A stretch of DNA of 64,000 bases from Pseudomonadota bacterium (GTDB lineage: Bacteria > Pseudomonadota > Alphaproteobacteria > Sphingomonadales > CAKZYD01): contig JBMOOS010000039.1 of NCBI GenBank assembly GCA_049324415.1, forward strand, positions 20,363 through 84,362, given 5' to 3'. Under the pieces are notes generated by a model. That model was not told the origin of the DNA. It saw only the letters and a program-made list of their open reading frames with translations, and ran no database searches. Both the position numbers and the translations under genes were made by a program. How positions within the stretch are numbered: position 1 is the first letter of the stretch; every line of letters starts with the position of its first letter. Below are positions 5,573 through 62,604 of the stretch, in pieces.

Positions 5573-5590
5573 GGGCGCGGCGCTTTTTCC

Positions 5591-6049
5591 ATGGCGTCGC
5601 CGATCACCGTTATTGCCGTCGGCCGACTTGGGCGCGGCCCTGAGGCCGAGTTGTGCGCGTCTTACGCAAAACGCATCGCCTGGCCGATGGACATCATCGA
5701 AATCGACGACCGCAAGGCGCCCGCCGCCAAGCGCAAGGTCTGGGAAGCGGCGCAGATCCTCAATGCCTGCCCCAGGGATGCCCATATCATCCTGCTTGAT
5801 GAACGCGGACGAGCGGTGACGAGCCCGCAACTGGCGCGTCTCATCGGCGCCAAAAGGGAGGCTGGCGAGGCCTTGGCGTTCATCATCGGCGGCGCGGACG
5901 GCGTTGATGAAGCGGTGCGCGTCCGGGCGGGCGAGGCTATCGCTTTTGGCGGCATGACCTGGCCGCATAAATTGGCGCGGGCCATGCTGATGGAGCAGCT
6001 TTACCGCGCTGGGACAATTTTAACCGGCCACCCCTATCATCGGAGCTGA
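5591..6049 (+). CDS. rlmH: 23S rRNA (pseudouridine1915-N3)-methyltransferase RlmH
   Basis: SPOUT family with FIIGGADG and a C-terminal LMEQLYRA...GHPYHR. Confidence 0.92.
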   Translation: MASPITVIAVGRLGRGPEAELCASYAKRIAWPMDIIEIDDRKAPAAKRKVWEAAQILNACPRDAHIILLDERGRAVTSPQLARLIGAKREAGEALAFIIGGADGVDEAVRVRAGEAIAFGGMTWPHKLARAMLMEQLYRAGTILTGHPYHRS

Positions 6050-46783: not shown

Positions 46784-47284
46784 TCATGTTGCAATTATGC
46801 CATGGTTGCGCAAAGCCGCCAGAATAGCCGTGGTTGCGCTGCGTGCTTCATTATCGATGGTCGTCCCGCCGGTGGGGTTGGCGATGGCGGGCTGGCGCGC
46901 GGCGAGCACTTTAACGCCGCCAACGCGAATTTCAGAACCAATCAGCACTCCCGCCTGCCATTGGGCACCGTCGAAGCGGGCGGGCAAGGCCTCGTCCTTG
47001 AGCCAGGCGGTGGCGCCCTCTCGCGGGGCGAGGAAGCGCCAGCCGCCGCTAGCCCACAGGGCAAGCTCTCCGTCCTTGCCTGTCCACTCGCCCGTCCCCC
47101 CTGTGGCGACGATCCACACCGCGCCTTCAGGCGGCGTTGCGGGCGGCGTGGCGCTTAACCGGCTTTCCACCGCAGGGTGGATTAGCGCATCGAGCAGCAG
47201 CAAGGCTTCGTTATGGGTGACCTCCTTTTGCGCCTGATTGGTGGCGATCAGGGGCAGCAGCCAGCGTGCGGTGGCCTCGGACAT
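46784..47284 (-). CDS. DUF2793 domain-containing protein (GTA-cluster terminal gene)
   Basis: LP.I...QAQKEVTHNEAL..LDAL start and ..GEW.G....LA.W..GGWRF..P.EG... Typical partner downstream of the host-specificity gene. Confidence 0.8.
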   Translation of the reverse strand: MSEATARWLLPLIATNQAQKEVTHNEALLLLDALIHPAVESRLSATPPATPPEGAVWIVATGGTGEWTGKDGELALWASGGWRFLAPREGATAWLKDEALPARFDGAQWQAGVLIGSEIRVGGVKVLAARQPAIANPTGGTTIDNEARSATTAILAALRNHGIIAT

Positions 47285-47299: not shown

Positions 47300-49549
47300 T
47301 CATAAAGCGATGGTCACTTGCGCCGGCAGGCCGCGCCCGACCTGCGCCGAACGCTGGTAAAGCCGCAAGCTGAGGGTTGCCGGCAAGCCGCCAAAATCGC
47401 TGAGCTGGTCGGCGGCGCTATAAAGTGCCTGGGGCGTGGTCGTGGCATAGCTGCGCGCCACGGTGGCGCCATTGAGGATTTCCAGGTCATAAGCCTCGCT
47501 TTCCTCGGCGAGGGGGGCATCGGCACCGTCGATCCAGGCGGCGCCGGCGCGGCTGCGCCGGATCCAGCTTATGCTGATGGCGCCATCGGCCTGGCGGCGG
47601 CCCCGCACATGCACCGGGGCAAGGGGGCGCAAATTGGCCGCAGTGAAAGTGAAGGGCGTCTCCCCTGCATTGATAAGAGCCTCGTTTGGCCCCACCGCCT
47701 TATAGCGACGCGTTTCGCCAACCTGCGCCAGTGTCGCGTTAATTGCGACAATGCTCGTGCGGTCCAAAAGGACGAAGCGCTCGCCCGCAAGATGGCCGGC
47801 GATCGCCGCCTCGCTGCCCCCCCGCCCCCGCAGCAATTGGGACAGGATATAGCTGCCGTCGGCTTGCAGAGCGGCATTGCGGAACTGGATGACTTCATCG
47901 CCGAGAAGCGCGGCGTTGGCGCCGCCAAGCACGGCTATTTGTGACCGCGATTCCAGCGTTGCCTGGGGATTGTCCAAGCCAACGCGCACTGTGTTTTGTA
48001 AGTCCCAGACATGAGGGGACGCTGGCGGCAGGGCGTCAAGGGCGGCACCCATGATGGCGGGCAGCGCGCTACGCGCCACGGGCTGATAGCTGAGGCCGCC
48101 ATCGCCCGATTCGAAAAGGCTGGCCGAGCGCCACGCATCATCATCGCCAGTGGCGGCGAAGTAAAAGCGCGGCATGCTCAGCTGCTCCGGGGTCAGCGCC
48201 GGCAGGTCGAAGAGGGTAAAGAAGGTTGGCCCCTGCAAGCGCAGGGTTTGACCGATCGGCGATCCGCCGTCGGCAAGCCCGGCGCCGGTCACCGCTTCCA
48301 AGTCAACAACGCGCCCGGCAAGGCGAACGCTGACGCCGTCATAGCGCTTGTCCTCGACCAGCATCAGCGGCGCCCCGCCCGGTGTCGCCGGCAGGCGAAT
48401 GACATCGCCCGGCTCGATGGCAAGATCGGTTGGCGGCAGCGAAAGGCTGTATCGTGCGCGCCCGCTCCAGGCCTTTTCCAATCGGCGCTCGGCCGCCGCC
48501 TTGGCCGTCGCTGCATCAAGGGCGACGGGGGCGCTGAACGCGCTCGCCCCCTCGCTCGCCGCCGTCCGCCGGCGGGCGCGCTGCACATTGGGCTGGTAGT
48601 CGCGGTCGGTGTCCCAGAAATAGACCCGGGTTTCTCGCGGCAGTTCTGATGCCTCGGCCTGCATACGCTCGATGCGCGGGCGCGGCGCGCCTTCCTCGCC
48701 AGCGCCAAGCCGTGCGGCATCGAAATCGATGGCGCCTTGTGGCATATCGCGCAAATAAAGCACGCCCTGGCTTTCCACCGCGGAAAAGTCGCGGGCGAGC
48801 GAGAGATTTTCCAGCGCATCGCGAAAGCCGGTGCCGCCATCGGTGACGAAGCCGGCGACGCTTCCTGTCAGGCCCCCGCCATCGACGGGCGCAAGCCCCA
48901 CGCGCCCGGCGATGTCCAGCGCCACCGCCGCAAGACCGGCATTGGGCTCGTCGGCCACCACTTCAAAATTGAGATTGGGCACGCGATTGGCGAACTCCGC
49001 CAGGGGCAAGTCCTCGAGGACGGCATAGGCAAGGCCGCGATGGGCCGGTACCTGCCCCACCCCTTGCGCGGCTTCGATCACCGGATCGGGCTGCTGTCCT
49101 TCCTCTCCGGCATAGACCCGCAGCGTGCCACCGACGCTCAGCGGACCACTGGCCGCACGGATGAGTTTGCCGTCGGCCCAGATCCGCTCAACGCGCGCGA
49201 TGGGGCGGCCAGAGAGCGCCACCGCCAGCGAAGCGCTGTAATTGAAGCGCACCGTGGTGGTGCCGCCTCCGCCCCCCTTGCCGCCGCTTCTTTCCTCGGA
49301 CCGGCTTTCGACGAGCCCGCTCGACCAGATGACGTTGCCCGCCACCCGGGCGCGGCCATAGATAAGGGGTATTGGCGCGCCATAGGACGCGCCCTGCACG
49401 CTGAGATCCTTCAGCCGCGGCCCTTCGCGCAGGCCGCCGCCGGGGCGAAAGATCTGGCGGTCGATGAAACTGCCGGCAACGGCGCCAACAAGGCTGCCGA
49501 CGGGGCCGGCGATGGCTTGACCGACAGCGGCGAGGACGAGCGTGGCCAT
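47300..49549 (-). CDS. phage tail/host-specificity protein (RcGTA g15 'megatron'-type, short form, 749 aa)
   Basis: The N-terminus MATLVLAAVGQAIAG...YGAPIPLIYGRARVAGNVIWSS...GGKGGGGG..V.F.YSASLAVAL..GPI..V.RIWADGK...AHRGLAYAVLEDLPL..F.NRVPNLNFEV matches the g15 N-domain. The C-terminal two-thirds are phage-tail_3-like. Start trimmed to MATLVL. Confidence 0.85.
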   Translation of the reverse strand: MATLVLAAVGQAIAGPVGSLVGAVAGSFIDRQIFRPGGGLREGPRLKDLSVQGASYGAPIPLIYGRARVAGNVIWSSGLVESRSEERSGGKGGGGGTTTVRFNYSASLAVALSGRPIARVERIWADGKLIRAASGPLSVGGTLRVYAGEEGQQPDPVIEAAQGVGQVPAHRGLAYAVLEDLPLAEFANRVPNLNFEVVADEPNAGLAAVALDIAGRVGLAPVDGGGLTGSVAGFVTDGGTGFRDALENLSLARDFSAVESQGVLYLRDMPQGAIDFDAARLGAGEEGAPRPRIERMQAEASELPRETRVYFWDTDRDYQPNVQRARRRTAASEGASAFSAPVALDAATAKAAAERRLEKAWSGRARYSLSLPPTDLAIEPGDVIRLPATPGGAPLMLVEDKRYDGVSVRLAGRVVDLEAVTGAGLADGGSPIGQTLRLQGPTFFTLFDLPALTPEQLSMPRFYFAATGDDDAWRSASLFESGDGGLSYQPVARSALPAIMGAALDALPPASPHVWDLQNTVRVGLDNPQATLESRSQIAVLGGANAALLGDEVIQFRNAALQADGSYILSQLLRGRGGSEAAIAGHLAGERFVLLDRTSIVAINATLAQVGETRRYKAVGPNEALINAGETPFTFTAANLRPLAPVHVRGRRQADGAISISWIRRSRAGAAWIDGADAPLAEESEAYDLEILNGATVARSYATTTPQALYSAADQLSDFGGLPATLSLRLYQRSAQVGRGLPAQVTIAL

Positions 49550-49959
49550 TAGGAAACCCCTGGGAAACGGTAGGCGCCGACAAGCCGCGCGCGCCACACG
49601 GGGTCAAGCCGGTGCTCGACCACGCGGCGCGCCAAGGCATAGGCGTGGATCATGCCCTTGTCGCTGGCGAGCGCCACATGCTGCGCCGGTCCATCGATGC
49701 GAAACAGCAAGACATCGCCGGGAAGCGCCGCCACCGGCGGGATCGGCGCCAGGCCGGCGGCGGCAAGATGGCGCTCCAACAGGCCGTGCGCCGGCTGGCG
49801 GCCATAGTCGCAAGGGTCGTCGGTCTGCAACCCCACGCCATGGGCGACATGGATGAGAAGGCCGACGCAATCGAGCCCCCGGCCCAATGCCCGGCCTTGA
49901 TGGCGAAAGGGCGTGCCCAAACACTGCCGGGCGGCGGCCACCAGATCATCGCGGGTCAT
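49549..49959 (-). CDS. NlpC/P60 family peptidase (RcGTA g14 type)
   Basis: GTPFRHQGR...GLDCVGL (catalytic Cys) and ...GD.L.F......HVA.. (His). Conserved position. Confidence 0.88.
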   Translation of the reverse strand: MTRDDLVAAARQCLGTPFRHQGRALGRGLDCVGLLIHVAHGVGLQTDDPCDYGRQPAHGLLERHLAAAGLAPIPPVAALPGDVLLFRIDGPAQHVALASDKGMIHAYALARRVVEHRLDPVWRARLVGAYRFPGVS

Positions 49960-50795
49960 TGCAAGCCTGGATAGTCGAGGAGCGAGTCAACGCCCGGCAC
50001 GAACGGTTCGCCACGAAAATTCTCGCCATTGGCGAATTTGTCGCGGCATGTGACAAAACGTTTGTCGCAGCCGGCTTCGACTTGAAACCGGTCGCCGATT
50101 TCGATCGGTGCGGCAAGGCTTCCCTGCAGCGCCAGCACGCCGGCGCTGTCGCTGCTCACGTCCATTTCCAAGCCGGCATTGCCGCCGCCAAGCCACAACA
50201 GCCGGCCATAGTGAAACCAGCCATCGGGAAAACCAAGGGCGCTGCGCATGCGTTTGGTCCCTTCCACCGCCGCCACCTGGCTCATCACCGTGAAGTCGCG
50301 CAAGGCGACGCGGCATTGCCGGTCGCCGAGGTCGGCGCGGCATTCGGGCGAGAAAACGGCGCCCACCGGCTGCTGCAGGGCTTGTTTGAGGCCGCGCATT
50401 TCGGCGGTGAAACGAGCGTCCTCGGCGCGTACTTCACCAAGGGTGCCGGTTTGCAGGACGATGCGCCCGGCCGGCGGGTCGGCCCAATTGACGAGGAACA
50501 CCGCAATACGCGCCAAGTCATAGCGCCCGGCAAGCAGGTCCGCCTCGCGGATGGCGCTGTCGGACAATACGCCTTCAATTTCCATATTATCGACGTTAAG
50601 GCCACTGCCGGCGGCGATCTGCGAAGGCAGGAAGGAGGGCGCCGGGCGATAGCGCGCGCCATCGATGACAAGCGTCTGATCGTGGGTGGTGAACCCAAGG
50701 CTGACGCCGTCCCGCCGGGTGACGCGCCAGCACAAGGCAAGGCTGGTCACCGGCGCGGCGAGATGCGCCGCCAGGGCGGGGGAAAGGCTGAGCAC
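49956..50795 (-). CDS. DUF2163 / BR0599-domain tail hub protein (RcGTA g13 type)
   Basis: T.LA.CWRVTRRDGV.LGFT.HD, SPEC.ADLGD..C, and C-terminal GCDKRF.TC..KF.N..NFRGEP.VPG. Confidence 0.88.
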   Translation of the reverse strand: MLSLSPALAAHLAAPVTSLALCWRVTRRDGVSLGFTTHDQTLVIDGARYRPAPSFLPSQIAAGSGLNVDNMEIEGVLSDSAIREADLLAGRYDLARIAVFLVNWADPPAGRIVLQTGTLGEVRAEDARFTAEMRGLKQALQQPVGAVFSPECRADLGDRQCRVALRDFTVMSQVAAVEGTKRMRSALGFPDGWFHYGRLLWLGGGNAGLEMDVSSDSAGVLALQGSLAAPIEIGDRFQVEAGCDKRFVTCRDKFANGENFRGEPFVPGVDSLLDYPGLQ

Positions 50796-50798
50796 GGC

Positions 50799-53153
50799 CT
50801 AAAGCCTGATCTCAACGAGGGGGATGGAAGGCACTTCCCCCGCCGCGAAGGTCTCGAAGCTGACTGCAAGGCTGTCCTCGGCGAAGCGCACGGGCACATC
50901 GAACTCGAAGCCGGCGGTGATCTGCGCGCCGCTGACCGGCGGATTTTCAAAATCGAGCACGCCGGTGGTGGTGTCGACGACCCAGCCGCTGGTCAGCTCG
51001 ACCCCATCGAGGGCGACGCGCACCGTTCCCGCCACCGGCTTCAAAATGGGGCGCACCACATCGGCGCCAAGGTCGCCATAATGCTTCACCAGTTGGAAGC
51101 TGGTGGCAAGGCCATCGCCCGCACCTAGCACTTGATCGCTCGCGCTGACCGAGGTGCCCACGCTGGCGGAGCTGAAATCGGCCCAGTCCTTGAAGCGAAA
51201 GCCGTGGGCGCGACCTTGGCGGGCGCGAAAAAAGGCGATGAGCTGGGCCAGGTCGGCCTCGCCGCGCAAGCCTCCGCCCACGTCATAGCGGGCACGCGCC
51301 TGCGCCCAATTGATATTGCGCTGTTCGGCGCCGGAGACCATCTCGCTCACCGTGGTGGAAAAGACAGGGCCGCCCGTGGCGCCGAAAGCGATATCGACGG
51401 GAAAGCGCACCTCGTGGAAGCCGGTCATATCGTCATCCTCCAGTTGGAAAAAAACAAAGCCGTCCCGGGCGACCTGCGGATAGGCCCAGACGAAGACCTC
51501 GGCAAAGCCGCGGGCGCGCCCATCCTCGATGGCGCGCGCGATGTTGCGCCACAGCGCACCATCGGCGGGGTCAAGGACGAAGCCGGCGAAATAATCGCTG
51601 TCCTGCGGGCTGTAGCCGAAACGCGCAGCGACTTGCGCAAGGCCCGCCGCATGGGCGCGCCAATCGCCAGCGATGACGTGGTCATAGTCTTCGACCTGCA
51701 GCCGGGTGAAGGCGGGAAATGACCAGCTTGCCGGCATGTTGACGCTGGCCAGCATGGGCGCGTCCGTGCGCAACACCTGCGGGGTGTAGACCAGAAGAAA
51801 GACCTTGGCGCCGGGATAGGCCCCCTGCACCGCATCGCGCAAGGCAAGGGTCGCCGCGCCCAGCTTCGTCCCGAGCCAATCGAGATAAGCCTGCTGCGCC
51901 GCATCTGGCGTTTCGGTGACGCTTTGATGGGCCGGCGGCACCGCCTGTCCCGTCTCCGCCGTATAAAGGGCGGTGGTGGTAGCGTCGTAAAAGCAGGGCT
52001 TGGCGCTAGCATCGGACGCAACCCACCACCAGGGCTCACCAATCTGCACCGCAGGGAGAAGGCCGGCGGCGGCCTGCACGCCGGTAAATTCCAGAAAGGC
52101 GTCGGCGAGATAATCCATGGCGGTGTCGTTGGTGGGCGTAAGGAGGGTGGAGGGCGGCTGCCAGCCGGTGAGCGCCGGGCTGGCGTCAAAGGCGCGCTGC
52201 TTCCAGCTTGCCGGCGCCCAAGCGTCGAAGAGCTCGAAGGAAAGCGAAAGGATGACCTCATAGCCCAAGGCGGCGGCGCGGGCGAAATAATCCTGATGCC
52301 ACGCCCGGCACGGGGCATTGAGGACGCTGCCATTGCCATCGCGGGCGGCGATGAAACGGCTCTCGCCGGCATCGAAGGCCAAGCGGAAATAATGGCTCAT
52401 CCCGGCATAATGGTCGAGCGCGCCTTGATAGCCGAGATGAAGGGCGTTGCGCAGCAGACGCTCAGGCGTCTGGTTGAATACATCGTCATAGCCATTGGCG
52501 AGGCGCAGCGGGTGCGGCGGGGTGAAGGCATCGCCAAGGCCGATGGTGCTCAGCGGCCCCTCGGCCGCCATCGCGCTGATTTCCACCCAGGCCTCGGCGG
52601 CGCCATTGGCGAGCGGGCCGGTGGCGACGCCATCAAAGTCGGGCGGCACCATGGAGATGAACATGCGGTCGATATCGCCCGGCCATAGCGGGTCGGCTTC
52701 TTGGGGAAGAAGAAAGCCGCCGTCCATTTGGCTGAAGTCAAGGGTGATGAGGGCGTCATCGGTGGCGCCGACGGCATAGTTCCAGAGCCGCACATACCAG
52801 GTGCGCGGCGCCCCGCTGGCGTCGCGGCCTTCGATGGTGAGGGTGGGGCCATTGACCTCGGCCAGGCCGCGGATGCCGCCGGCGCGCCAGCGGAAGCGCA
52901 AAACCGTGCCGCTATAGTCCCGCGCCGTTTCATAGCGCAAATGCGGCGGGTCGAGGGTATCGACGCTGTCCCAAATAAGCCCGGCAAGATTGTCGCGCTC
53001 GTAAAATGTCAAATCGACCCTGAGGGCGTCGCTCCCCTGGGTGATGACCGAGGCCATCATCGGGCGGGGGAAGTTGACGGTCCAGAAGCGGGGGTCGAAG
53101 CGCTTGATGAAGGTGCGCCTCAGCGCGTCTTCGGGGGCGGTGAGCCAATACAT
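50799..53153 (-). CDS. DUF2460 distal-tail protein (RcGTA g12 type) fused in frame to a ~575-aa N-terminal module of unknown (TIM-barrel-like?) function
   Basis: The C-terminal 209 aa (MTGFHEVRFPVDIAFGATGGP....RN.NW.....YDV..G......L..LIAFF.AR.GR.HGFRFKDW.D) are a complete DUF2460. The 575 upstream codons are in the same frame with no stop and have normal W/Y/F/D-rich composition. An internal GGAGG-N8-ATG lies at 51441-51426. Confidence 0.8.
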   Translation of the reverse strand: MYWLTAPEDALRRTFIKRFDPRFWTVNFPRPMMASVITQGSDALRVDLTFYERDNLAGLIWDSVDTLDPPHLRYETARDYSGTVLRFRWRAGGIRGLAEVNGPTLTIEGRDASGAPRTWYVRLWNYAVGATDDALITLDFSQMDGGFLLPQEADPLWPGDIDRMFISMVPPDFDGVATGPLANGAAEAWVEISAMAAEGPLSTIGLGDAFTPPHPLRLANGYDDVFNQTPERLLRNALHLGYQGALDHYAGMSHYFRLAFDAGESRFIAARDGNGSVLNAPCRAWHQDYFARAAALGYEVILSLSFELFDAWAPASWKQRAFDASPALTGWQPPSTLLTPTNDTAMDYLADAFLEFTGVQAAAGLLPAVQIGEPWWWVASDASAKPCFYDATTTALYTAETGQAVPPAHQSVTETPDAAQQAYLDWLGTKLGAATLALRDAVQGAYPGAKVFLLVYTPQVLRTDAPMLASVNMPASWSFPAFTRLQVEDYDHVIAGDWRAHAAGLAQVAARFGYSPQDSDYFAGFVLDPADGALWRNIARAIEDGRARGFAEVFVWAYPQVARDGFVFFQLEDDDMTGFHEVRFPVDIAFGATGGPVFSTTVSEMVSGAEQRNINWAQARARYDVGGGLRGEADLAQLIAFFRARQGRAHGFRFKDWADFSSASVGTSVSASDQVLGAGDGLATSFQLVKHYGDLGADVVRPILKPVAGTVRVALDGVELTSGWVVDTTTGVLDFENPPVSGAQITAGFEFDVPVRFAEDSLAVSFETFAAGEVPSIPLVEIRL

Positions 53154-53180
53154 GATGAAACCGTTGCGCTGTTGACGGTG

Positions 53181-53858
53181 TCAGCGGTCGCGCTCGGCCC
53201 GTTCGACCGCGCGGCGCACGGCAAGGGCGATTTGCCCGGCGCTTTCGCGGCCCAGGCGGGCGCTGGGCGCGGCGTTGACATTGATGGTGATGGCGATGGA
53301 CCGGCGTTGCGCCAGGTTGGGATCAGCGCGGCTTAAGGGGGCGATGCGGCCGCTGGCGGGGGGAAGAAAAACCTCCGGCCCGCGTTCGCCGACCAAGACC
53401 GGACGCCGCTCGACGACGGGGCCGCCGATGGCCCGCCCGGCGGTCGAGAGCACGGGCGGCGCGCTCCCGAAGATGGCGCTAAAGAAGCTCCCGAGAAGCC
53501 CGCCCCCGGAAGCGCCGCCGAAAATCCGATCGAGGCCAGAACGGATGGCGGCGCTGGCGATATCGTTCAAGACCCCCAGCGCCACCACGCGCAAATCCTC
53601 GAACGACAGGCGGCCGGTGCGGGCAAAGCGGATGAAGGCGTTTTCCATGCGCCGACCGGCGCTGGTGGCGGCGGTGGCCAGCAGGGCGCCAAAATTATCC
53701 ATTTCGCCGGCAAGGCTGCCCAATTGCCGCTTGGCGCCATTGCCGGCATCACTAAGGCCGGCAAGGTCGGCGCGCACGCGGCCCAGATCCCGCTCAAGGG
53801 CGCGGGTATCGGCGCGCACGGCAACGACCAGCGTGTCGAGGACTGTCTCCACGCGCAT
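53181..53858 (-). CDS. short phage tail tape measure protein (RcGTA g11 type, 225 aa)
   Basis: Helical N-terminal half, a Gly-rich middle (GGASGGGLLGSFFSAIFG) and ...GGPV...RP.LVGERGPE.F.P. Size and position match GTA g11. Confidence 0.8.
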   Translation of the reverse strand: MRVETVLDTLVVAVRADTRALERDLGRVRADLAGLSDAGNGAKRQLGSLAGEMDNFGALLATAATSAGRRMENAFIRFARTGRLSFEDLRVVALGVLNDIASAAIRSGLDRIFGGASGGGLLGSFFSAIFGSAPPVLSTAGRAIGGPVVERRPVLVGERGPEVFLPPASGRIAPLSRADPNLAQRRSIAITINVNAAPSARLGRESAGQIALAVRRAVERAERDR

Positions 53859-54204: not shown

Positions 54205-54414
54205 TCAACGATCGGGAAAGCGCGCCTTGAGGGCGGCAAGCCCTTCGCCGTCGAGCCTTGCCGGCGCTTCTCCGCCCAAGCCGTGCGCTTTTGCCCACAG
54301 GCTCCAGGCGGCGAGGAATTCATGGGGCGTTGCCCGCCAGAAATCCTCGGGCGGCCAGCCCATGAGGCCAGTGGCGACGCCAGCGCAGCCTTGCCAGTCG
54401 ATGAGCCGGGTCAT
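54205..54414 (-). CDS. rcc01693-family phage tail assembly chaperone (RcGTA g10.1 type)
   Basis: IDW........GLMGW.P..FW..TP.EF..A is as I recall this family. ATGA overlap with the upstream gene. Confidence 0.75.
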   Translation of the reverse strand: MTRLIDWQGCAGVATGLMGWPPEDFWRATPHEFLAAWSLWAKAHGLGGEAPARLDGEGLAALKARFPDR

Positions 54415-54731
54415 GCCGGCCCCTTGAGCACCGCCAACAGGATATCGCGATAGGCGGTGGTCACGGCGGCGACGCCATCGCCAGCGATGAGTTCGCCCAC
54501 GTCGTCACGGCTGAGGCCCGCGCCGCCCGCGTCAAGGCACGCCCACAAAACGGTGACAATGTCGCCAAGCCGGGGTGCGCCGCTGCTTGCCCGTTCGATA
54601 AGGGCAAGCAGGCTCCCCTCGGCTTCCTCGATGCGCGCAAGGGCGGCAAAGCTTGGCCGCAGCACATAGCCTGTGCCGCCCAGGCGCAGCGCGACCTCGC
54701 CGCGCAAGGGATTGGCCTTATGTTCAGACAT
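54411..54731 (-). CDS. gene transfer agent family protein (RcGTA g10 type tail assembly chaperone)
   Basis: ANPLRGEVALRLGG..Y.LRPSF.AL..IE.. is typical of GTA g10. Start trimmed to MSEHKANP. Confidence 0.8.
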   Translation of the reverse strand: MSEHKANPLRGEVALRLGGTGYVLRPSFAALARIEEAEGSLLALIERASSGAPRLGDIVTVLWACLDAGGAGLSRDDVGELIAGDGVAAVTTAYRDILLAVLKGPA

Positions 54732-55137
54732 CGGTGAAGACCACTGGCCCCGAGCTTTCCAGCTGCAGGCTATAGGTCCGCTCGCCATTGAAGTCGCCGG
54801 CATATTCAAGGCTGGTGACCTGGAAGCTGCCGGCAAAGCTGTCGCCGGTCTCGAACACTACTTGATAGGCGCCAAGGCTTGCATCCATCGCCTTGGCTTG
54901 AACGAGGCGCTCGGCGGCGCCGTCGGTGAACACGCCGGCACCGGTAATCGATACCGCGCGCACCCCGGCGCCGGCAAGCAGCGTGCGCCAGCCATTGGAC
55001 GCCTTGGTGGTGACATCGACCGCCTCGGCGTTGATGGTGAATTGGGTGGTGCGCATGCCGGCAACGGTGGTGAGGACCGGCGGGGTCCCATCATCGGAAA
55101 TTTTCAACAAAAAGGCACTGCCTTTTTCGGCGGGCAT
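54724..55137 (-). CDS. phage major tail protein, TP901-1 family (RcGTA g9 type)
   Basis: G..FLLKI.D......T.VAG.R.T....N.E.VDVT.K.S.GWR.LL.GAG.R...I.G.GVF.D. 137 aa. Confidence 0.88.
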   Translation of the reverse strand: MPAEKGSAFLLKISDDGTPPVLTTVAGMRTTQFTINAEAVDVTTKASNGWRTLLAGAGVRAVSITGAGVFTDGAAERLVQAKAMDASLGAYQVVFETGDSFAGSFQVTSLEYAGDFNGERTYSLQLESSGPVVFTDV

Positions 55138-55162: not shown

Positions 55163-55570
55163 TTAAGGAAGGGCGTGGGTGAGGGCGCGGAAGCGCATAA
55201 TCGCGTGATGGAGGGGTCCCGCCGCCTCGCGCAGGATTTGCCCGAACTCGAAGCGCAAGCTTACAAGCGCGTGGCCGGGAAGGGTGAGCGCCGCCTCGTG
55301 CAAGGCGTCATAAGCAAGGGCCATCAACTCCTTGGCTTCGCCATGACCGGGGGCGGCGGACCACAAATGGACATCGAAGCGATGCTCCTCGCCGCTGAAG
55401 CTTTTGCTCGACCAGTCGCGCACCGTCGCTGGCCCAAGGGTGGCATAAGGATAGGCCGCCTCAGGGGAAACATGGTCGTAAACCCCGTTAAGCCGCGCCA
55501 TCAGCGCCATATCGCCGGTCAGGCGGCCATAGACCGCCTGTTGCAGCGGCCAGCTTGCGTCAAGGGGCAT
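55163..55570 (-). CDS. DUF3168 tail terminator/completion protein (RcGTA g8 type)
   Basis: LQ.AVY.RL..D..L..L...VYD.VP....YPY..LG and ....H.W. 135 aa. Confidence 0.82.
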   Translation of the reverse strand: MPLDASWPLQQAVYGRLTGDMALMARLNGVYDHVSPEAAYPYATLGPATVRDWSSKSFSGEEHRFDVHLWSAAPGHGEAKELMALAYDALHEAALTLPGHALVSLRFEFGQILREAAGPLHHAIMRFRALTHALP

Positions 55571-55935: not shown

Positions 55936-56267
55936 GTCGCCGCCGCCCCTTCGCAATCCAGCTCCAGCATGCGCCGGGCGCCGGTGGAGTCGATGACCCG
56001 CAGCACCAGCAAGGGGCGGCCGCGCCACAGGAGACGCATGCCCGGCGCCACCCCGGCGCGATAGCGCAAATAGACTTTATAGGCCACCACGGCATCACGG
56101 CGCTGGGCGATATCGACACTGCTCGCGGCGCGCGGGGTGATGGCCGCCTTGCAGCGCGCGACATCGCGCCAGACGTCCTCTTGGCCGCCACCGCCATCGC
56201 CGGCATCGCTCGCCCGCGCTTGCAGCCATACCGAGTGGCTGAGCGCGCCGGCTTCTTCCCCGCCCAT
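55932..56267 (-). CDS. phage head closure / head-tail adaptor protein (RcGTA g7 type)
   Basis: ...VWA.......E......Q......Y.V.LRYR.GV..GMRL.W.GR.L.V..V.D. Start trimmed to MGGEEAG (TGATG junction with g6). Confidence 0.75.
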   Translation of the reverse strand: MGGEEAGALSHSVWLQARASDAGDGGGGQEDVWRDVARCKAAITPRAASSVDIAQRRDAVVAYKVYLRYRAGVAPGMRLLWRGRPLLVLRVIDSTGARRMLELDCEGAAAT

Positions 56268-56806
56268 CACAGGTGCATCTCCCGATAGGGTTGCCACAAG
56301 GCGGTGACGGCGGTGGGCACCGCCGGCGCCGAAGCATCGTCGCGATAGCGATAGGCGTGGGCGATGAGGCGCAACAGTCCTTGGCGCAGGGGCCAGGGGA
56401 CGGCGTTCCAATCCGCGCCATAGCCGGCGCGATAGTCGATCTCGAGACGGCTGGCGGTGGCGGGCAAGCGTTTAAGGACAAGCTGGTCGCGGCCATCGCC
56501 CTGCACCAGCGCATAGTCGCCGGCGGACCAATCGAAGCTTGCGAGGCTGCTGGCTTCGCGCACCGTAAGGATGGCTTCCACCGGCCCATGGCCAAGGGTG
56601 ATGGCGGCCGTCATCGCTTGAGTGCGGTAGCGCCAGGTCTGGCTGATGAGGGAACGGCCCGTGAACCCCTCGCAGGTCTGGCGCGCCGTGGTGATCAGCA
56701 TGGCGACAAGCGCGTCTTCCGTCTCGTCCTCGAGGCGCAAATAGGCGCGCGCCTCGTCGAGCGAGACAGGCTCCACCGCCGGCGGGGAAAGAAGAAGATA
56801 GCTCAT
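56267..56806 (-). CDS. phage gp6-like head-tail connector protein (RcGTA g6 type)
   Basis: P.VEPVSLDEARAYLRLEDETEDALVAMLITTARQTCEGFTGRSLI.QTWRY is the classic gp6-like connector N-domain. Confidence 0.85.
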   Translation of the reverse strand: MSYLLLSPPAVEPVSLDEARAYLRLEDETEDALVAMLITTARQTCEGFTGRSLISQTWRYRTQAMTAAITLGHGPVEAILTVREASSLASFDWSAGDYALVQGDGRDQLVLKRLPATASRLEIDYRAGYGADWNAVPWPLRQGLLRLIAHAYRYRDDASAPAVPTAVTALWQPYREMHL

Positions 56807-57087
56807 CAGCGCTCATCCACCAGAATGGTGAAGCTGCGTTCCTCGACAAGGCCGCCCGATAGAGCGATGCGGTTGGCAACGCGATAGGCGTGGCGCTTAA
56901 TCCCGGCGGCCAGGGTGACTGAAGCCTTGGTCCCGTCGAGCGCCTCGCCAAGGATGGCAAGCCCGCCTTCCTCTTGCGGCGAAAGCGACCAGTTGCTCGT
57001 GAGGATGGTTTGTCCGGCAAACCCGGCGTCCGCCCATTCAATGCTGTAGTCAAGGGTGGCTTGCGGGTCTTTAAGAAAGGTGGTCAT
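56806..57087 (-). CDS. small phage protein (93 aa), K-DP-x3-LDY-x3-W family
   Basis: MTTFLKDPQATLDYSIEWA....GQTI.TS.W...... ...Y.V.NRI....G...ERSF.I.V.ER resembles a widespread small phage beta-sandwich family that I recall sitting next to fibre/tail genes. Only the last 93 codons of track ORF 56806..57516 look real. Confidence 0.6.
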   Translation of the reverse strand: MTTFLKDPQATLDYSIEWADAGFAGQTILTSNWSLSPQEEGGLAILGEALDGTKASVTLAAGIKRHAYRVANRIALSGGLVEERSFTILVDER

Positions 57088-57587
57088 ACGCTGGCCGCCG
57101 TCAAGGTCACGGTAACGTCGATGGTGTCGCCGTTCGCCACTACCCGGTTGCCACCGGCAAATGCCGCCCCGCCCATCAAAATGCCGGTGGTCCCGCCCTT
57201 GGTCGCATTGGTGGCGACGAAGGCGCCGCCCACGGTGCCGCTGGCGTTGATGGCAAAGCTCGCCTTGACGGCTGAATTGTCCACCGATTGCGCCGAGACG
57301 GTCCCCAAGGTCAGCGTCGGCCGGGCGGCGTTTGAATAGACGGTGCTTTCGGTCCAGCCGGCGTGGGAAGCCATGGTGTCGGCGGCGGCGAAAGTGGGCG
57401 TCCCGCCGGCGAGCCCGACATAATGCGCCGCCGTGTAGGCAGCGCCTTTCCAGAACTTGTCGAGAATCTCGTCGAGCCCGACATTGACCGTGATGTTTTT
57501 TACGGTCTCGCGCCATTTGACGGCGCCCGCCGCATCGCGGCAGACAACTTCATAGGTGTTGCGGAAAGCGGTATTGATTTGGGTCAT
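57084..57587 (-). CDS. hypothetical phage structural protein (167 aa, beta-rich)
   Basis: ATGA-coupled on both sides within the operon. Real-looking composition (W, Y, F, N, T rich). I recognise no family. Confidence 0.6.
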   Translation of the reverse strand: MTQINTAFRNTYEVVCRDAAGAVKWRETVKNITVNVGLDEILDKFWKGAAYTAAHYVGLAGGTPTFAAADTMASHAGWTESTVYSNAARPTLTLGTVSAQSVDNSAVKASFAINASGTVGGAFVATNATKGGTTGILMGGAAFAGGNRVVANGDTIDVTVTLTAASV

Positions 57588-58660
57588 GCCTTGATGCTCC
57601 TTTGGCTGGCAGTGATGGTGATGGTGCGCTTCCCCGCGCCCACGGTGAGGGTGCGGCTGGCCGCGCCGATGGCAATGGTCCTTCCCGGGCTGGGCGTGAC
57701 GGTGGTGGCAAGGGCAAACAGCGCACCTGCGCCATGCCCTATCTCGATAAGGTCATTGACGGTGAGCTTGCCCGATGCGCTCGCCGCGAACAGGCCGGCA
57801 ATGGTGATGGTTGCGCCCACCGCCGTGCGTTCTTGCTGGGCAATGTCAAGGTCCACGGCAAGCGCCAGGTCGGCGCCGATCCTGACTGCGTTCAGCGGCG
57901 AAAGGCCAGCGCCAAGGCTTAGCGACAGTGCCTCGGCGATGGCCTGGCCGCCGGGGCTTGCCGCCAGCCCGGCTCCTATCCCAAGCGCCATCGGGGCGAT
58001 GAGATAAGAGGTGACGGCAGCATCGAGCCCGGCGCCCTGGTCAAGGCTTATCAGCCCGGCAACGCCCGCCGTGCCGCCCAGTCCTGCGCTCGCGCCAAGG
58101 CCTAGATTTATTGTCTCGCTAAATACCGTACCGCCCGCAACCGGTGTAATGCTGACATGGGCGAGCGCCCAATAGCCGCTCAAGCTTGCATCGCCCAGCC
58201 GGAAGGTGGCGATAGAGCCAGTGAAGGTCAGCGTCGCCGCGGCATTGTTGGCGACCCAGTCGGCGACGCTGGTACGCAAAACATTGCTCGCGTCGTAGAA
58301 CTGCGCGGCATTGGTCGAACCCGGCGCGATGTCGAGGAGGACCGTCGCGCCGTCGAGCACCTGGATGCGCTGGGCGGTTTGCGCGAAACCCTCATCGCCC
58401 AGGGCAAGGCGTATCTGATATTGGCCGGGCGCTGGCAAATCGACGGAGAAGTTTCTTATTTTGGTGGCAAGATGCGAATGCACCCCGGCAAGCCGGGCGT
58501 CCACCGCGTTCGAGCGGTTGGCCCGCGTCAGGCCGCCGGTATTGTCCCAGCCGAAGGTCTGACCGTCGCGGGTGACGGGATAGGTATCGTTGCCGACGAA
58601 CACGTCGCCCGGCGCGTCCGTCACATGGGACGCCGTCGCCCTGAAGTTAAAGCCGGCCAT
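57584..58660 (-). CDS. hypothetical phage structural protein (358 aa; globular N-domain + periodic Gly/Ala/Leu-rich C-terminal half)
   Basis: Operon strand, starting 54 nt after the capsid stop. The N-terminal ~175 aa are beta-rich. The C-terminal half has recurring L.LGAGL-type segments and ends in four R(T/S)-led ~9-mers. Confidence 0.6.
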   Translation of the reverse strand: MAGFNFRATASHVTDAPGDVFVGNDTYPVTRDGQTFGWDNTGGLTRANRSNAVDARLAGVHSHLATKIRNFSVDLPAPGQYQIRLALGDEGFAQTAQRIQVLDGATVLLDIAPGSTNAAQFYDASNVLRTSVADWVANNAAATLTFTGSIATFRLGDASLSGYWALAHVSITPVAGGTVFSETINLGLGASAGLGGTAGVAGLISLDQGAGLDAAVTSYLIAPMALGIGAGLAASPGGQAIAEALSLSLGAGLSPLNAVRIGADLALAVDLDIAQQERTAVGATITIAGLFAASASGKLTVNDLIEIGHGAGALFALATTVTPSPGRTIAIGAASRTLTVGAGKRTITITASQRSIKA

Positions 58661-58714: not shown

Positions 58715-59974
58715 TCAGCTGAGGGCGAATTTGAGAAGCTTGATGGCCTCGGAATTCATCACCCCGCCGCCTGTGCGCCTGGTGGCGTAGAAATGAATGA
58801 AGGGCTTGTTGGAGAAGGGGTCGCGCAAGACCCGTGTCCCCATGCGGTCGGTAATGAGATAGCCGCGGGTGAAATTACCGAAAGCGATGGGCAGACCGTC
58901 GGCGCCGATATCGGGCATGTCCTCGGCTTCAACGACGGGATAGCCAAGCAAGGTGGCGGCCGCCGCCTCGCCCAACCCCGGCCGCCATAGATAATTGCCA
59001 TCGGCATCCTTGAACTTGCGGATGCGGGCCAGCGTGTTGGTGTTCATGACGAAGCGCGCGCCTTGGCGATAGACCGGCCGCAAGGCATGGACGAGGTCCA
59101 CCAGCTTATCGGCAGGATTGCTAGCCGGAAAGTCGCCGGAAACCCCGGTCGCCACATGCTGCAAGGTGCCGAAGGGGCGGCTTGCGTCATCGCTGGCGGC
59201 GGTGGCGTAGCTGAGGAAACCCCTGGGCTTGTCGATCCCGTCGCCGGCGACAAAGGCGGCGCCTTCCTTGGCCCCGAATTCGATGGCAAGCTCGTCGGCG
59301 AGCCAAGCCTCGACGTCGAAAAAGGCATCATCGAGCATGCCTTGGGTCGCCGCCGGATTGGCGTAAATCTCGCCCAAGGGCGGGGTGACCTCGGCAAATT
59401 GCGGGGTTCCCGTCTCCGGCCGGGCAGCGCTTTCCCCCACCCAGCCCGAGGCGGCGCCCGTCATGCTCACCAGTTTTTTGTAACTGCCGCTGCCGATCTG
59501 CGTCACATTGGCGATGGCGCGGATGGGGGAGACATCCTTTAAGAGACGCTCGATGGCGGCATCGATTTGCTGCGGCACGGCAAATCCGCCGTCCGCGTCA
59601 ACCCCGGTATTGAGCGCCTTGGCCTCAATCCGGGGCAAGCCGGTCTCGAGGCCCTTGCGCACATAGCGATCGATGAACGCGGTCTTGTATTCGTCGGCTT
59701 GTCCGCCGCGCCCGCTGCCTTCGAGCATGGGCCGAGCGGCGCGGCGCGTCAGCATGTCGACACGGCCGTGCAGCCGGTCGACCTCGGCATTGATACGGTC
59801 AAGTTTTTGCTCGAGGACGGCATCGCCCGTCCGCTCGGCCTCTTCATGGCTGGCCTTGAAGGCCTCGAAGGCCTGGCCCAGTTCGTCGACCGCCGCCTTG
59901 ATTTCATAGGCGCTGGCGGCGGGCCGGGCACAGGCTTCGGCCGGACTATCGGTTGGAGAGTGGCTATAGGTCAT
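58715..59974 (-). CDS. phage major capsid protein, HK97 family (RcGTA g5 type)
   Basis: N-terminal delta/scaffold-like helical region, then ..GGF.VP.......I..L....SP.R..A.V. and ...P.GFL.Y...... 419 aa. Confidence 0.92.
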   Translation of the reverse strand: MTYSHSPTDSPAEACARPAASAYEIKAAVDELGQAFEAFKASHEEAERTGDAVLEQKLDRINAEVDRLHGRVDMLTRRAARPMLEGSGRGGQADEYKTAFIDRYVRKGLETGLPRIEAKALNTGVDADGGFAVPQQIDAAIERLLKDVSPIRAIANVTQIGSGSYKKLVSMTGAASGWVGESAARPETGTPQFAEVTPPLGEIYANPAATQGMLDDAFFDVEAWLADELAIEFGAKEGAAFVAGDGIDKPRGFLSYATAASDDASRPFGTLQHVATGVSGDFPASNPADKLVDLVHALRPVYRQGARFVMNTNTLARIRKFKDADGNYLWRPGLGEAAAATLLGYPVVEAEDMPDIGADGLPIAFGNFTRGYLITDRMGTRVLRDPFSNKPFIHFYATRRTGGGVMNSEAIKLLKFALS

Positions 59975-60540
59975 GGACGTGCTCCTGTGTTGAGGGCGTG
60001 AATGAGGTTTTGCAAGCTCGCAAGAAGCGCCGACGAAGTGGGCTTTGCGTACCTGTCTGGCGGCGCGTCAGGGGCTGGTCTTGCCTTGATGGCGGTAAGC
60101 CTGGCGGCCGGCTGCATGGGGAAAGTCACCAGCGAGACTTCCCACAAGTCGATGTCGATGAGCCGGCGCACGCTGCGCGCGGCGTCGACTTCCGCCGCGC
60201 GGACCTTGTAGCCGATCGACAGGCCATCAAGGGCGCCGGCCCGCAGCAAGGCCTGGGCTTCCCGAGCACGAATGACATCGCCCAGCAGCCGGCCGCGCAC
60301 GAACAGGCCGTGGCTGTCCTCCCGGATATGCTCGATGACGCCGACAGGCTCGCGCGGGTCGTGCTGCCATAAAAGCTTGACGCCGCCCGCGCCGCGGGCT
60401 TTCAGCGAGCGGGCAAAGGCGCCGGGCATGATTTCATCGCGACCCTGGTCGATGCGTCCGAAAACGCTGGCATAGCCCTCGAAGCGTCCCACCTCGGCAA
60501 GGGACGCGAGGGCGCCAGCGGCGTTGCAGCAATGCGCCAC
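59971..60540 (-). CDS. HK97 family prohead protease (RcGTA g4 type)
   Basis: FEGYASVFG..D..RD.I.PGAF..SL......VK.LWQHD...P.G and ...GL.V.G.L......A.E....R.GALDGLSIGY. 4-nt overlap with the capsid gene. Confidence 0.9.
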   Translation of the reverse strand: MAHCCNAAGALASLAEVGRFEGYASVFGRIDQGRDEIMPGAFARSLKARGAGGVKLLWQHDPREPVGVIEHIREDSHGLFVRGRLLGDVIRAREAQALLRAGALDGLSIGYKVRAAEVDAARSVRRLIDIDLWEVSLVTFPMQPAARLTAIKARPAPDAPPDRYAKPTSSALLASLQNLIHALNTGARP

Positions 60541-60577: not shown

Positions 60578-60901
60578 CTAAGGGCGGACCGTCTTGAGGT
60601 AGAGCACCAGCCCGACGAGGAGAGCGGTGATCATGATCTTGACCAGCCAATTGACGGCGGCACGCCAGGCGGTGCGCCGCAGATCGCGCCAGGCGGTGAT
60701 GAGCTGGCGCAATTCGTAAATATCGCCGCCGGCATGGGCATCGCCAAGGCCAAGCTGGGCAAGGGCGCGGGCAGCGCCTATTTCGCTGGCCTCCTCGACA
60801 AGCGCACGCAAGGTAACGACATCGGCGCCGCCAGCCTGGGCTTGCCGCGCCAGGGCGGCGAGCAGGCTTTCGCTGTTTTGGTATCGGGCTGGCTTGTTCA
60901 T
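60578..60901 (-). CDS. small protein with C-terminal TM helix at the g3.5 position of GTA clusters
   Basis: 107 aa with a helical N-terminal part and a C-terminal TM (WLVKIMITALLVGLVLYL). The position between portal and protease mirrors the RcGTA g3.5 slot. Confidence 0.55.
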   Translation of the reverse strand: MNKPARYQNSESLLAALARQAQAGGADVVTLRALVEEASEIGAARALAQLGLGDAHAGGDIYELRQLITAWRDLRRTAWRAAVNWLVKIMITALLVGLVLYLKTVRP

Positions 60902-61359: not shown

Positions 61360-62604
61360 TCAAGCGCCAGCCTCGTCCCCTTCTGGGACGTCCTCGCCAT
61401 CGCGCATCCGGGCCGGCAGGAGCGGCAATCCCAGAACGACACGCTTTTCCGCGTCAGTCAAAAAGCTTGCCGCCGCCACCATGCGCCATAAAGCCTCGCG
61501 CTCCGGTAACAAGGCCGGGATGGCGTTGCGGTCGAAGTCGAGCTTCAACCCACCGCCAAAGGCGGGGGCGAGCCAGCGGTCGAGGGCGCCGGCAAGCTTG
61601 CCGAGTAGGGGCAACAGGCTGAGCCGCCACAGGGCGCGGTTGGCTTCCTGATAATTGGCGTAAGTATTGTCGCCGGGGATGCCCAACAGCATGGGCGGGA
61701 CGCCGAAGGCGAGCGCGATGTCGCGGGCGGCAGCGTTTTTGGTCGCGTGATAATCCATGTCGGACGGCGAAAAGGCCATCTGCTGCCATTTAAGGCCGCC
61801 TTCGAGAAGCAGAGGCCGGCCGGCGTTGCCGCTGCCTTGGAAGTTTTCCTCCATTTCTTTTTTAAGACGCAGGAACTGCTCCTCGCTGAGCGCTGGCGCG
61901 CCGTCGCGGGGCTCGAAAACGAGCGCCCCGGAAGGCCGCGCCGCGTTGTCGAGAAGAGCCTTGTTCCAGCCATCCACGGCGCCGTGGAGGTCGAGGCCGC
62001 GGGCTGCGGCATCGAGGGCTGAAAGACCCAAATGGTCGTCGAGGGGATCGAATTCGCGGATATGCAAAATTGACGAGGCGCCGCTAATGGGATCGACGGG
62101 AAAACGGTGCTTGGCGCCTCCAGCGCGGTATTCATAGGCCTCCGGCCAGCCGGACGCGCCAGCAAGGATATGCATGCGGTCGGGCCGCAGCACATGAAGC
62201 TCCGCCGGCGCCCCCTCGCTGTCATCGACCCGCTCGATGAAGGCATCCCCCGCAAGCAGAAGATAGCCAATGAGCGCTTCGATGAATTCCGCGCCGCCAA
62301 GCAGCGGGTTGGGCCGTCGCAAAAGATCAAGAAGCGGGTGCTGGATCAGCGCCCGGCCTTCCTGCTCAAGCCGCCAGGGCACTGCGGCGATCGATTGGCT
62401 GACGATCCGCACGCAACGCTGGACCACGGGATTTTCCGCCATCCCGCGCCGCACGAGGCTGGCATAAGACCGCCCCGACCATTGGGCGCCCATGCCAGCG
62501 AAAAGCCATGTTTCAAGCCGCGCCGGCGCGCCGCCACGCGCCGCGCTCGCCTTGGCTTCCAGTACGGGTCGCGGCCGCCGGAAGGGATTGCCAAATATCG
62601 CCAT
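61360..62604 (-). CDS. phage portal protein, HK97 family (RcGTA g3 type)
   Basis: ...NP.V.RCV..I...IA.VPW.L......... .HPLL.LL.RPNP...G..F.E......LL.G.A. and ...GW.....Y. 414 aa. Confidence 0.92.
   Translation of the reverse strand: MAIFGNPFRRPRPVLEAKASAARGGAPARLETWLFAGMGAQWSGRSYASLVRRGMAENPVVQRCVRIVSQSIAAVPWRLEQEGRALIQHPLLDLLRRPNPLLGGAEFIEALIGYLLLAGDAFIERVDDSEGAPAELHVLRPDRMHILAGASGWPEAYEYRAGGAKHRFPVDPISGASSILHIREFDPLDDHLGLSALDAAARGLDLHGAVDGWNKALLDNAARPSGALVFEPRDGAPALSEEQFLRLKKEMEENFQGSGNAGRPLLLEGGLKWQQMAFSPSDMDYHATKNAAARDIALAFGVPPMLLGIPGDNTYANYQEANRALWRLSLLPLLGKLAGALDRWLAPAFGGGLKLDFDRNAIPALLPEREALWRMVAAASFLTDAEKRVVLGLPLLPARMRDGEDVPEGDEAGA

Follow-up and report, generated by a model that had tools for sequence, protein, structure and literature searches.

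The sequence considered here (the window) is a stretch of 64,000 nucleotides (nt) from contig JBMOOS010000039.1 (assembly GCA_049324415.1) of an uncultured alphaproteobacterium of the Sphingomonadales. One open reading frame (ORF) on the minus strand of the window is assigned, by similarity and position, to g12, the distal tail protein gene, in a cluster of head and tail genes resembling the Rhodobacter gene transfer agent (GTA) known as RcGTA. The frame begins with an additional module of 575 amino acids (aa), and the ribosome-binding site and start codon of a distal tail protein of ordinary length are preserved inside it. The comparative evidence makes it probable that both a long and a short product are made from this gene and act in the tail tip.

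Nested reading frames at the g12 locus

The long frame, here termed g12-L, extends over positions 50799..53153 (minus strand) and was obtained from the ORF listing and its translation. It starts with ATG (53151..53153), 27 nt past the stop codon of the upstream gene g11, and encodes 784 aa made up of a module like that of the coliphage N4 sheath, a linker and the distal tail protein. From the N-terminus onward, and all on the minus strand, these parts are a beta-rich NCTSP_N domain common to N4 gp65 (PF23844, aa 16-207, 52533..53108), a TIM-barrel_NCTSP domain with a predicted glycoside-hydrolase-like (beta/alpha)8 barrel (PF23845, aa 212-566, 51456..52520), an acidic linker recognized from the sequence and from the confidence of the structural model (aa 567-575, FVFFQLEDD D, 51429..51455), and the distal tail protein domain. 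The linker bears the internal ribosome-binding site, a Shine-Dalgarno (SD) sequence GGAGG at 51437..51441 that lies 8 nt upstream of an in-frame ATG encoding Met576 (51426..51428). The nested short frame opened by this codon, g12-S (50799..51428), would specify a product of 209 aa, followed by a stop, with the N-terminus MTGFHEVRFP; this is the canonical length of a distal tail protein according to the DUF2460 match and the RcGTA alignment. The junction reads CAA CTG GAG GAT GAC GAT ATG ACC GGC TTC CAC GAG GTG CGC TTT CCC, and zero stop codons occur between the two modules. The 784-codon ORF, the ATG at 51428-51426 and the GGAGG at 51441-51437, which had been reported in the initial annotation of the window, were all verified in the sequence.

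No SD sequence is present within 30 nt upstream of the long-form start (53154-53183, minus strand). The combination of a long-form start without an SD and a perfect internal GGAGG suggests that translation of the long form is no more efficient than that of the short form. In public databases, the gene is annotated as a single 'DUF2460 / Rcc01695 family' protein.

Domain composition of the long protein

The last 209 aa are clearly recognizable by sequence as a homologue of the RcGTA g12 distal tail protein (Rcc01695/DUF2460 family). Pfam assigns PF09343 (DUF2460) to aa 580-783 with E = 3e-85 and a score of 285.3 bits against a gathering cut-off of 30.4, covering profile positions 1-205 of 205. 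In a PDB sequence search, residues 2-210 of Rcc01695 (6tba_6B, 210 aa) align to aa 578-784 of the ORF with E = 8.2e-66, such that the segment AFHEVRFP beginning at residue 2 of Rcc01695 pairs with ORF residue 578 onward. This alignment bears out the earlier observation that the canonical g12 N-terminus (MTGFHEVRFP) lies inside the ORF. The distal tail protein of roseophage R4C (8gtc_G) is matched both in the PDB sequence search (E = 1.8e-51) and by a Foldseek comparison with the structural model (E = 1.4e-19, template modeling score TMt 0.79). The stand-alone length of about 210 aa that is usual for the DUF2460 family is not that of the 784-aa ORF and fits only the putative 209-aa product of the internal start.

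The 575-aa N-terminal module corresponds to two Pfam families whose names derive from the 'non-contractile tail sheath' of coliphage N4. PF23844 (NCTSP_N) matches with E = 1.5e-88 (295.5 bits versus a cut-off of 27) and PF23845 (TIM-barrel_NCTSP) with E = 4e-129 (431 bits versus a cut-off of 27), so that both exceed the gathering score, and they occur in the expected N-to-C order. The PDB sequence search returned N4 gp64 (417 aa) with E = 1.8e-52 and N4 gp65 (1382 aa; chain 9lc0_I) with E = 1.2e-14 over aa 13-89. An AlphaFold model built from an alignment of 72 homologues has a mean predicted local distance difference test (pLDDT) value of 92 and a predicted template modeling (pTM) score of 0.82, with pLDDT falling to 68 in the linker region (residues 571-580). 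When this model was compared with the PDB by Foldseek, the top match was again N4 gp64 (9yf5_SA; E = 3e-25, TMt 0.67, root-mean-square deviation 2.4 Å), and N4 gp65 chains were matched with E of ~1e-19. After the phage proteins, the list continues with GH50 agarases, beta-amylases (GH14) and the C-terminal hydrolase domain of PgaB/BpsB (E 1e-8 to 1e-6). As modeled, the TIM-barrel fold resembles known glycoside hydrolases (GH), which agrees with the glycoside-hydrolase-like TIM barrel anticipated for this region in the initial annotation.

Residues E307, E373, E488, D489 and Y490 are invariant in the 72 sequences. The four acidic residues among them (E307, E373, E488 and D489) are located at or next to the ends of model strands 299-305, 368-372 and 484-488 and are candidate catalytic acids. 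The acidic motifs (the E in SxxxE, QIGEPWWW and EDYD) are kept in common with N4 gp64.

A different identity for the N-terminal module, the GTA_TIM domain (PF13547), had been named as a candidate and is not supported. Pfam returned zero GTA_TIM matches even at E <= 10, and hhalign comparison of the homologue alignment with the peripheral region of gp84 from Roseobacter phage RDJL Phi 1 gave a probability of 0.2%. The gp84 peripheral region itself holds GTA_TIM at E = 4e-111.

The module also occurs outside GTA clusters. It is present in 326 phage records, where it is annotated as tail fiber, tailspike or sheath, and it forms 627 clusters at 50% identity. It is found at N-terminal, middle or C-terminal positions in proteins of ~570-2950 aa, or stands alone in proteins of 572-593 aa. 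This distribution points to a portable carbohydrate-directed tail module. One report (PMC8669472) assigns 'homologous glycan deacetylase tailspikes' to relatives of N4, to Vequintavirinae and to phi92-like phages; these tailspikes are taken here as the same module because the phage hits bear annotation in the same terms.

Individual occurrences illustrate the range of partners. In P0121 and P0126 the module is N-terminally fused and followed by faint DUF2460-like segments, and in P0128 and P0130 it is N-terminally fused to unrelated partners. P0141 is a stand-alone module of 593 aa that adjoins a Phage_stabilise-like gene on contig L083. P0132 carries the module C-terminal to Phage-tail_3; it was considered as a megatron with the module at the peripheral position and was rejected, since the order of Phage-tail_3 followed by the module is a different architecture. 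P0134, in which the module occupies residues 215-780 of 1274, was considered as a case of a relocated g15 domain and was likewise set aside because the protein has no similarity to g15.

Conservation of the fusion

The persistence of the fusion was evaluated using a homologue listing and a scan of species-representative genomes. Among the matches listed, there are 120 protein clusters of ~780 aa with 52-64% identity to the window protein, and all three domains are found in every one (120/120). These clusters include Pedomonas, Emcibacter, Luteithermobacter, Govanella, Rhodothalassium, Iodidimonas and Sphingosinicella. The genome scan returned 80 loci from 588 counted relatives, a count that, with one search pattern placed in the DUF2460 part, may also cover short g12 genes of the canonical kind. 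Each of the 80 loci returned contains the full-length fusion, with 48-64% identity to the window protein, and the loci include Sphingomonas, Sphingobium, Novosphingobium, Sphingorhabdus, Polymorphobacter, Stakelama, Emcibacter and Pedomonas. Intact fusions are present in complete genomes of cultured Sphingomonas, Sphingobium, Novosphingobium, Polymorphobacter and Pedomonas. Across the sampled Sphingomonadales and Emcibacter-group clusters, the fusion is the standard architecture. It had initially been regarded as an unusual arrangement for a GTA tail tip, a view that is not compatible with its presence in every related locus examined.

The window protein and the 80 loci together gave the 81 sequences used for all comparative tests. 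An uninterrupted ORF spans both modules in 79/81, and a stop codon between the modules, for which a survey of related genomes had been suggested, is found in 0/81. The two exceptions are low-coverage metagenome-assembled genome loci, L002 and L031, in which a stop lies inside the DUF2460 part: L002 has an in-frame stop in FH*VRLP (1806-1830) and L031 has one in ...APWG*AVSP (about 5343-5963). These stops are attributed to sequencing errors or decaying GTA copies. They were also considered as a sign of separate genes, which is ruled out because neither lies between the modules.

The linker, measured from an invariant RDG motif to the internal start, is 9-15 aa long and falls into seven length classes, always in frame. 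The N-terminal and C-terminal modules are equally conserved, each with ~53% identity to the window, and pairwise identity among the sequences falls as low as 41%. Taken together, the intact ORFs, the in-frame linker insertions and deletions, and the equal conservation of the modules indicate that the long protein is maintained by selection. The N-terminal 575 aa have conserved homologues, both in the N4 sheath families and in the related loci, as the original reading of the locus required. A recent loss of the stop codon of an upstream gene, which that reading had offered as an alternative, does not fit the occurrence of the fusion in all listed clusters and all loci at these levels of identity. 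An assembly error at the junction, also raised there, is contradicted by the related loci and by the identical protein recorded both in NCBI and in an independent (Logan) assembly.

None of the 80 loci has the two parts as adjacent separate genes, and none has a stand-alone copy of the module inside the cluster. The stand-alone module contig L083 (3.2 kb) has a different context, in which the neighbor is the Phage_stabilise-like gene. One of the loci (L052, NZ_LSHP01000109.1) is labeled as the betaproteobacterium Acidovorax delafieldii CCH4-A2 and bears a Sphingomonadales-type GTA locus with a long g12; it is probably a contaminant or mis-binned contig.

Conservation of the internal start

The column that holds Met576 contains ATG in 41, GTG in 36 and TTG in 1 of the 81 sequences. 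In the three remaining sequences (GCC, ACC and GCG), the next codon is TTG or ATG, so that a start codon is kept in 81/81 and has been shifted by one codon in three lineages. Where the column encodes Val, the codon is always GTG (36/36), although GTG makes up 55.5% of Val codons in these ORFs; the probability of this outcome, computed from the codon usage of each sequence with the sequences treated as independent, is ~1e-9.8. The single Leu is encoded by TTG, which represents 12% of Leu codons. Fitch parsimony on a neighbor-joining tree places at least 21 independent changes at the start codon, each of which preserves a start.

For the ribosome-binding site, an SD core was defined as GGAG, GAGG or AGGA located 4-16 nt upstream. 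By this definition, a core precedes the internal start in 78/81 sequences compared with 8.8% for other in-frame start-type codons (ATG, GTG or TTG; n = 3806), so the conservation check proposed for the internal SD had a positive outcome. Five or more of the six AGGAGG positions are matched in 64/81, against a background of 5.2%. The GGAG core is in codon phase 2 in 46 sequences and in phase 0 in 18, and the peptides coded across it differ (L-E-D, Q-E-D, G-E-D, Q-G-N, A-G-D and S-G-G), with a spacing from SD to start of 5-9 nt in 62/64. Since the SD occurs in two codon phases and encodes different peptides, the conserved item at this site appears to be the RNA motif and not the amino acids.

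The region is also poor in predicted RNA structure. A 60-nt window at the start has a mean minimum free energy of -11.5 kcal/mol compared with -20.4 kcal/mol elsewhere in the same ORFs, and it is less structured than ~96% of other ORF windows, a difference that holds in all 81 sequences. The GC content of the start window is 53% versus 65% for the ORF. At the long-form start, ATG is present in 74/75 related loci and an SD core in only 45/75, so the internal SD is better conserved than that of the long form. Start-type codons reach a frequency of 85% or more in only three further columns, all of them invariant or nearly invariant Met positions, consistent with ordinary amino-acid conservation. 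Together, these observations indicate nucleotide-level selection on the internal start.

Gene cluster context

Neighboring genes were assigned with Pfam unless noted otherwise, and all are on the minus strand. The g2-g15 gene set is collinear with RcGTA. The order g11 - g12 - g13 is kept in related loci: the upstream neighbor of g12 is the g11 tape measure gene (53181-53858; PF09718, E = 1.2e-8), and the downstream neighbor is the g13 baseplate hub gene (49956-50795; PF09931 + PF09356). These are followed by the g14 NlpC/P60 peptidase gene (49549-49959; PF00877), a short megatron-like g15 of 765 aa (47300-49597; Phage-tail_3 + Rcc01698_C, without GTA_TIM) and, directly after g15, a DUF2793 gene of 166 aa (46784-47284). 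A DUF2793 gene directly follows g15 in most related loci as well.

The g15 gene bears on the interpretation of g12. It aligns to the RcGTA megatron only at residues 27 to ~222 and 766-1303 and, on this alignment, is missing exactly the peripheral domain (RcGTA residues 230-744, the GTA_TIM region). In all complete related loci, g15 is similarly short, with 719-948 codons from stop to stop save for outliers of 170 and 405 codons, and none of these loci has a g15 near the ~1300 aa of RcGTA g15.

The head portion and the remainder of the tail comprise genes for the terminase (62693-63994), portal (61360-62604), DUF6127 (60578-60901), protease (59971-60540), capsid (g5; 58715-59974), connector (g6; 56267-56806), tail completion (55163-55570), tail tube (54724-55137) and GTA-gp10 (54411-54836) proteins. 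Two extra ORFs sit between capsid g5 and connector g6, where RcGTA has no genes: one encodes 358 aa without a Pfam match (57584-58660), and the other is 236 aa long and has PF23148, 'podophage fiber-tail adaptor gp77', as its C-terminal domain (56806-57516). From their position, these could be head-decoration or spike genes. The flanks of the cluster are cellular (OmpA-like, EAL and TauE genes), and many related loci share synteny over the tail part, g11 through DUF2793; both features fit a predicted GTA.

Proposed products and alternative explanations

The mechanism proposed for g12 begins with two initiation events. Translation from the first ATG (53153) would yield the 784-aa g12-L, consisting of NCTSP_N, the glycoside-hydrolase-like TIM barrel, the acidic linker and the DUF2460 protein, and translation from the internal SD and ATG (51441-51426) would yield the 209-aa g12-S, identical to the C-terminal domain and of the size of canonical RcGTA g12. 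The long and short forms may then join a single hexameric distal-tail ring. This step draws on the RcGTA structure, in which the distal tail protein makes up a single hexamer between tail tube and baseplate, Ala2 at its N-terminus, its long loops and its C-terminus make the ring contact with the threefold hub and the megatron, and odd and even subunits differ in conformation such that one set binds the hub and the other the megatron (PMC7296036). By analogy with that interface, it is improbable that all six N-termini could bear a 575-aa extension there, and the location of the RcGTA ring N-termini in the hub interface is the reason for proposing a mixed ring. Most simply, such a ring would hold three long and three short subunits, with the bulky modules at the baseplate periphery and hub attachment unblocked.

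The N-terminal module would stand in for the peripheral TIM-barrel domain of g15 (megatron residues 230-744 in RcGTA; PMC7296036), which RcGTA has and this cluster does not. As g15 is without the peripheral domain in these clusters, it seems that g12-L, in its place, provides the baseplate with the peripheral TIM-barrel module. The module likely binds or cuts polysaccharide on the surface of recipient cells, a role proposed by parallel with the many oligosaccharide-binding sites of the RcGTA tail (PMC7296036) and with TspA, the recently described detachable tailspike of RcGTA.

The most specific version of this mechanism is that the ring of Sphingomonadales-type GTAs is an obligate 3+3 heterohexamer from one nested gene, in which the internal start resolves the mismatch between sixfold and threefold symmetry and three glycanase modules of the N4 sheath type replace the megatron peripheral domain. 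This version is put forward tentatively, and somewhat more doubtfully than an even chance. If it holds, this would be the first tail of a phage or GTA in which internal initiation within the gene of a structural ring protein fixes the subunit stoichiometry.

The initial annotation had proposed that the locus could produce both the 784-aa fusion and a separate 209-aa protein; conservation of the start codon, the SD, the low structure and the frame gives this proposal strong comparative support. Several points weigh against the interpretation. The two products themselves are inferred from comparative evidence, in which the sequence statistics treat related genomes as partly independent. Co-assembly and the 3+3 stoichiometry are extrapolated from RcGTA, whose g12 carries no extension, and the AlphaFold model is that of a monomer and is silent on ring compatibility. 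With zero sequence homology between the N-terminal module and the GTA_TIM peripheral domain by Pfam (E <= 10) or hhalign, the replacement idea rests on position and fold class only. The N4 sheath is a receptor-binding protein that is not described as an enzyme (PMC13434306), and catalysis by this TIM-barrel family is putative.

The alternative that survives best is that the two forms are produced yet occupy no common ring. The short form alone would build the hexamer, and the long form would dock elsewhere or be set free as a soluble or detachable enzyme, or the ratio would be regulated so that particles are formed with or without the module. The excess of short form suggested by the SD-less long start and the perfect internal SD in the window would agree with such an arrangement. 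The long form, however, retains the whole DUF2460 domain, with conservation equal to that of the remaining protein, which is hard to explain without a ring position or an equivalent contact, and no stand-alone copy of the module exists in these clusters. This alternative is judged unlikely, and the choice between a shared ring and separate or regulated use is the main uncertainty about the mechanism.

Considerably less probable is the explanation that only the long fusion is made and that the internal SD and start are either a relic of a separate g12 or an SD-like pause site at a domain boundary. The fusion must derive from a stand-alone g12 with its own ribosome-binding site, given that canonical g12 is ~210 aa, and a slowing of elongation by intragenic SD-like sequences has been proposed, though this is disputed. 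A relic would nevertheless decay at the divergence seen here, where pairwise identity reaches 41%, and the start codon has instead changed at least 21 times to another start, has shifted by one codon in three lineages and is GTG at every Val. The SD has been rebuilt in different codon phases at a site where RNA structure is minimal, and a pause site needs no start codon 5-9 nt downstream.

The idea that the fusion is an artefact of assembly or sequencing, or a recent pseudogenizing stop loss in what are truly two genes, is barely credible, for while L002 and L031 show that errors or decay do occur in such data, their stops lie inside the DUF2460 part and not between the modules, the exact protein is found in NCBI and in the Logan assembly, the fusion is intact in all 120 listed clusters, in 79 of the 81 ORFs and in cultured complete genomes, and the linker insertions and deletions are always in frame.

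Relation to known systems

With production of both forms retained as the preferred interpretation, g12 can be compared with several characterized systems. The closest are g12 of RcGTA (Rcc01695; PF09343; PDB 6TBA, 6TEB and 6TEH) and its counterpart in R4C (8GTC_G), which share the same C-terminal homologue, the same slot between g11 and g13 and the same length as the internal product. RcGTA g12 is a single 210-aa product, whereas the gene described here has the extra 575-aa N-terminal module in frame. The module in turn shares its two domains, with strong sequence and fold matches, with N4 gp65/gp64 (PF23844 and PF23845; PDB 9LC0 and 9YF4) and, by the identification adopted above, presumably with the tailspikes found in Vequintavirinae and in phi92-like phages. 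The N4 sheath surrounds a podovirus tail with sixfold symmetry and consists of the subunit gp65, which binds the receptor, and the minor partner gp64 (PMC13434306). There the module is part of a 1382-aa receptor-binding protein and a 417-aa partner, whereas in the present gene its fusion partner is a distal tail protein of the siphovirus type, and a sheath role is not implied.

The peripheral domain of the RcGTA megatron g15 (PF13547) is likewise TIM-barrel-like, has a size of ~500-575 aa and is carried on a baseplate protein of the tail tip. The carrier differs, being g15 in RcGTA and g12 here, and the clusters with a long g12 have a g15 without the peripheral domain. On the sequence comparisons above, the two domains would be analogous in placement and are not shown to be relocated orthologues.

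Carbohydrate-binding modules for recognition of the host surface are carried by 'evolved' distal tail proteins of Lactobacillus and Lactococcus siphophages, where they are inserted in the C-terminal domain and borne by all six subunits. The module described here differs in being N-terminal and enzyme-like, and in being accompanied by a putative undecorated isoform from the same gene.

Internal initiation also gives dual isoforms in the genes for ClpB, CheA and IF2. It is reported for SctQ/YscQ/HrcQ of type III secretion and Fha of type VI secretion (PMC4295842, PMC8553256 and PMC13389060). Like g12, genes of the SctQ type have an in-frame internal SD and start, and their C-terminal isoform acts with the full-length protein in one assembly, as would be the case for g12. 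Unlike in SctQ-type genes, the internal start in g12 would serve a mismatch between sixfold and threefold symmetry. No description of this fusion, or of an internal start in a distal tail protein gene, was found in the literature searched, which included papers on GTA evolution. To our knowledge, internal initiation has not been described for any phage or GTA distal tail protein.

GTA and phage annotation pipelines register a single 'DUF2460 / Rcc01695 family' protein and overlook both the module of the N4 sheath type and the putative second product nested in the gene. Should both forms be made, the gene would provide a simple genetic route to a mixed ring, placing a bulky enzyme on a tip whose ring N-termini serve the hub. 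The arrangement also suggests that GTAs swap polysaccharide-directed modules among baseplate proteins, the carriers being g15 in Rhodobacter, g12 in the present clusters and, in RcGTA, the detachable TspA, and it would tie GTA host recognition to the N4/Vequintavirinae tailspike family, which targets surface glycans. The presence of the same gene in cultured Sphingomonas, Sphingobium, Novosphingobium and Pedomonas, among them Sphingomonas jatrophae, Sphingobium olei and Novosphingobium kunmingense, makes these proposals testable.

A further arrangement was encountered in Rhodobacter phage RcKickapoo (L082, 6417-8791). Its 'glycoside hydrolase' of 408 aa, which has no Pfam match, is located between the tape measure gene and a DUF2460 gene of 381 aa, in whose product the DUF2460 match begins at residue 78. 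The protein was considered as a relative of the N-terminal module and was found to be unrelated (hhalign probability 0.3%). Judged from gene order and domain boundaries, RcKickapoo appears to represent another way to set an enzyme beside an N-terminally extended distal tail protein.

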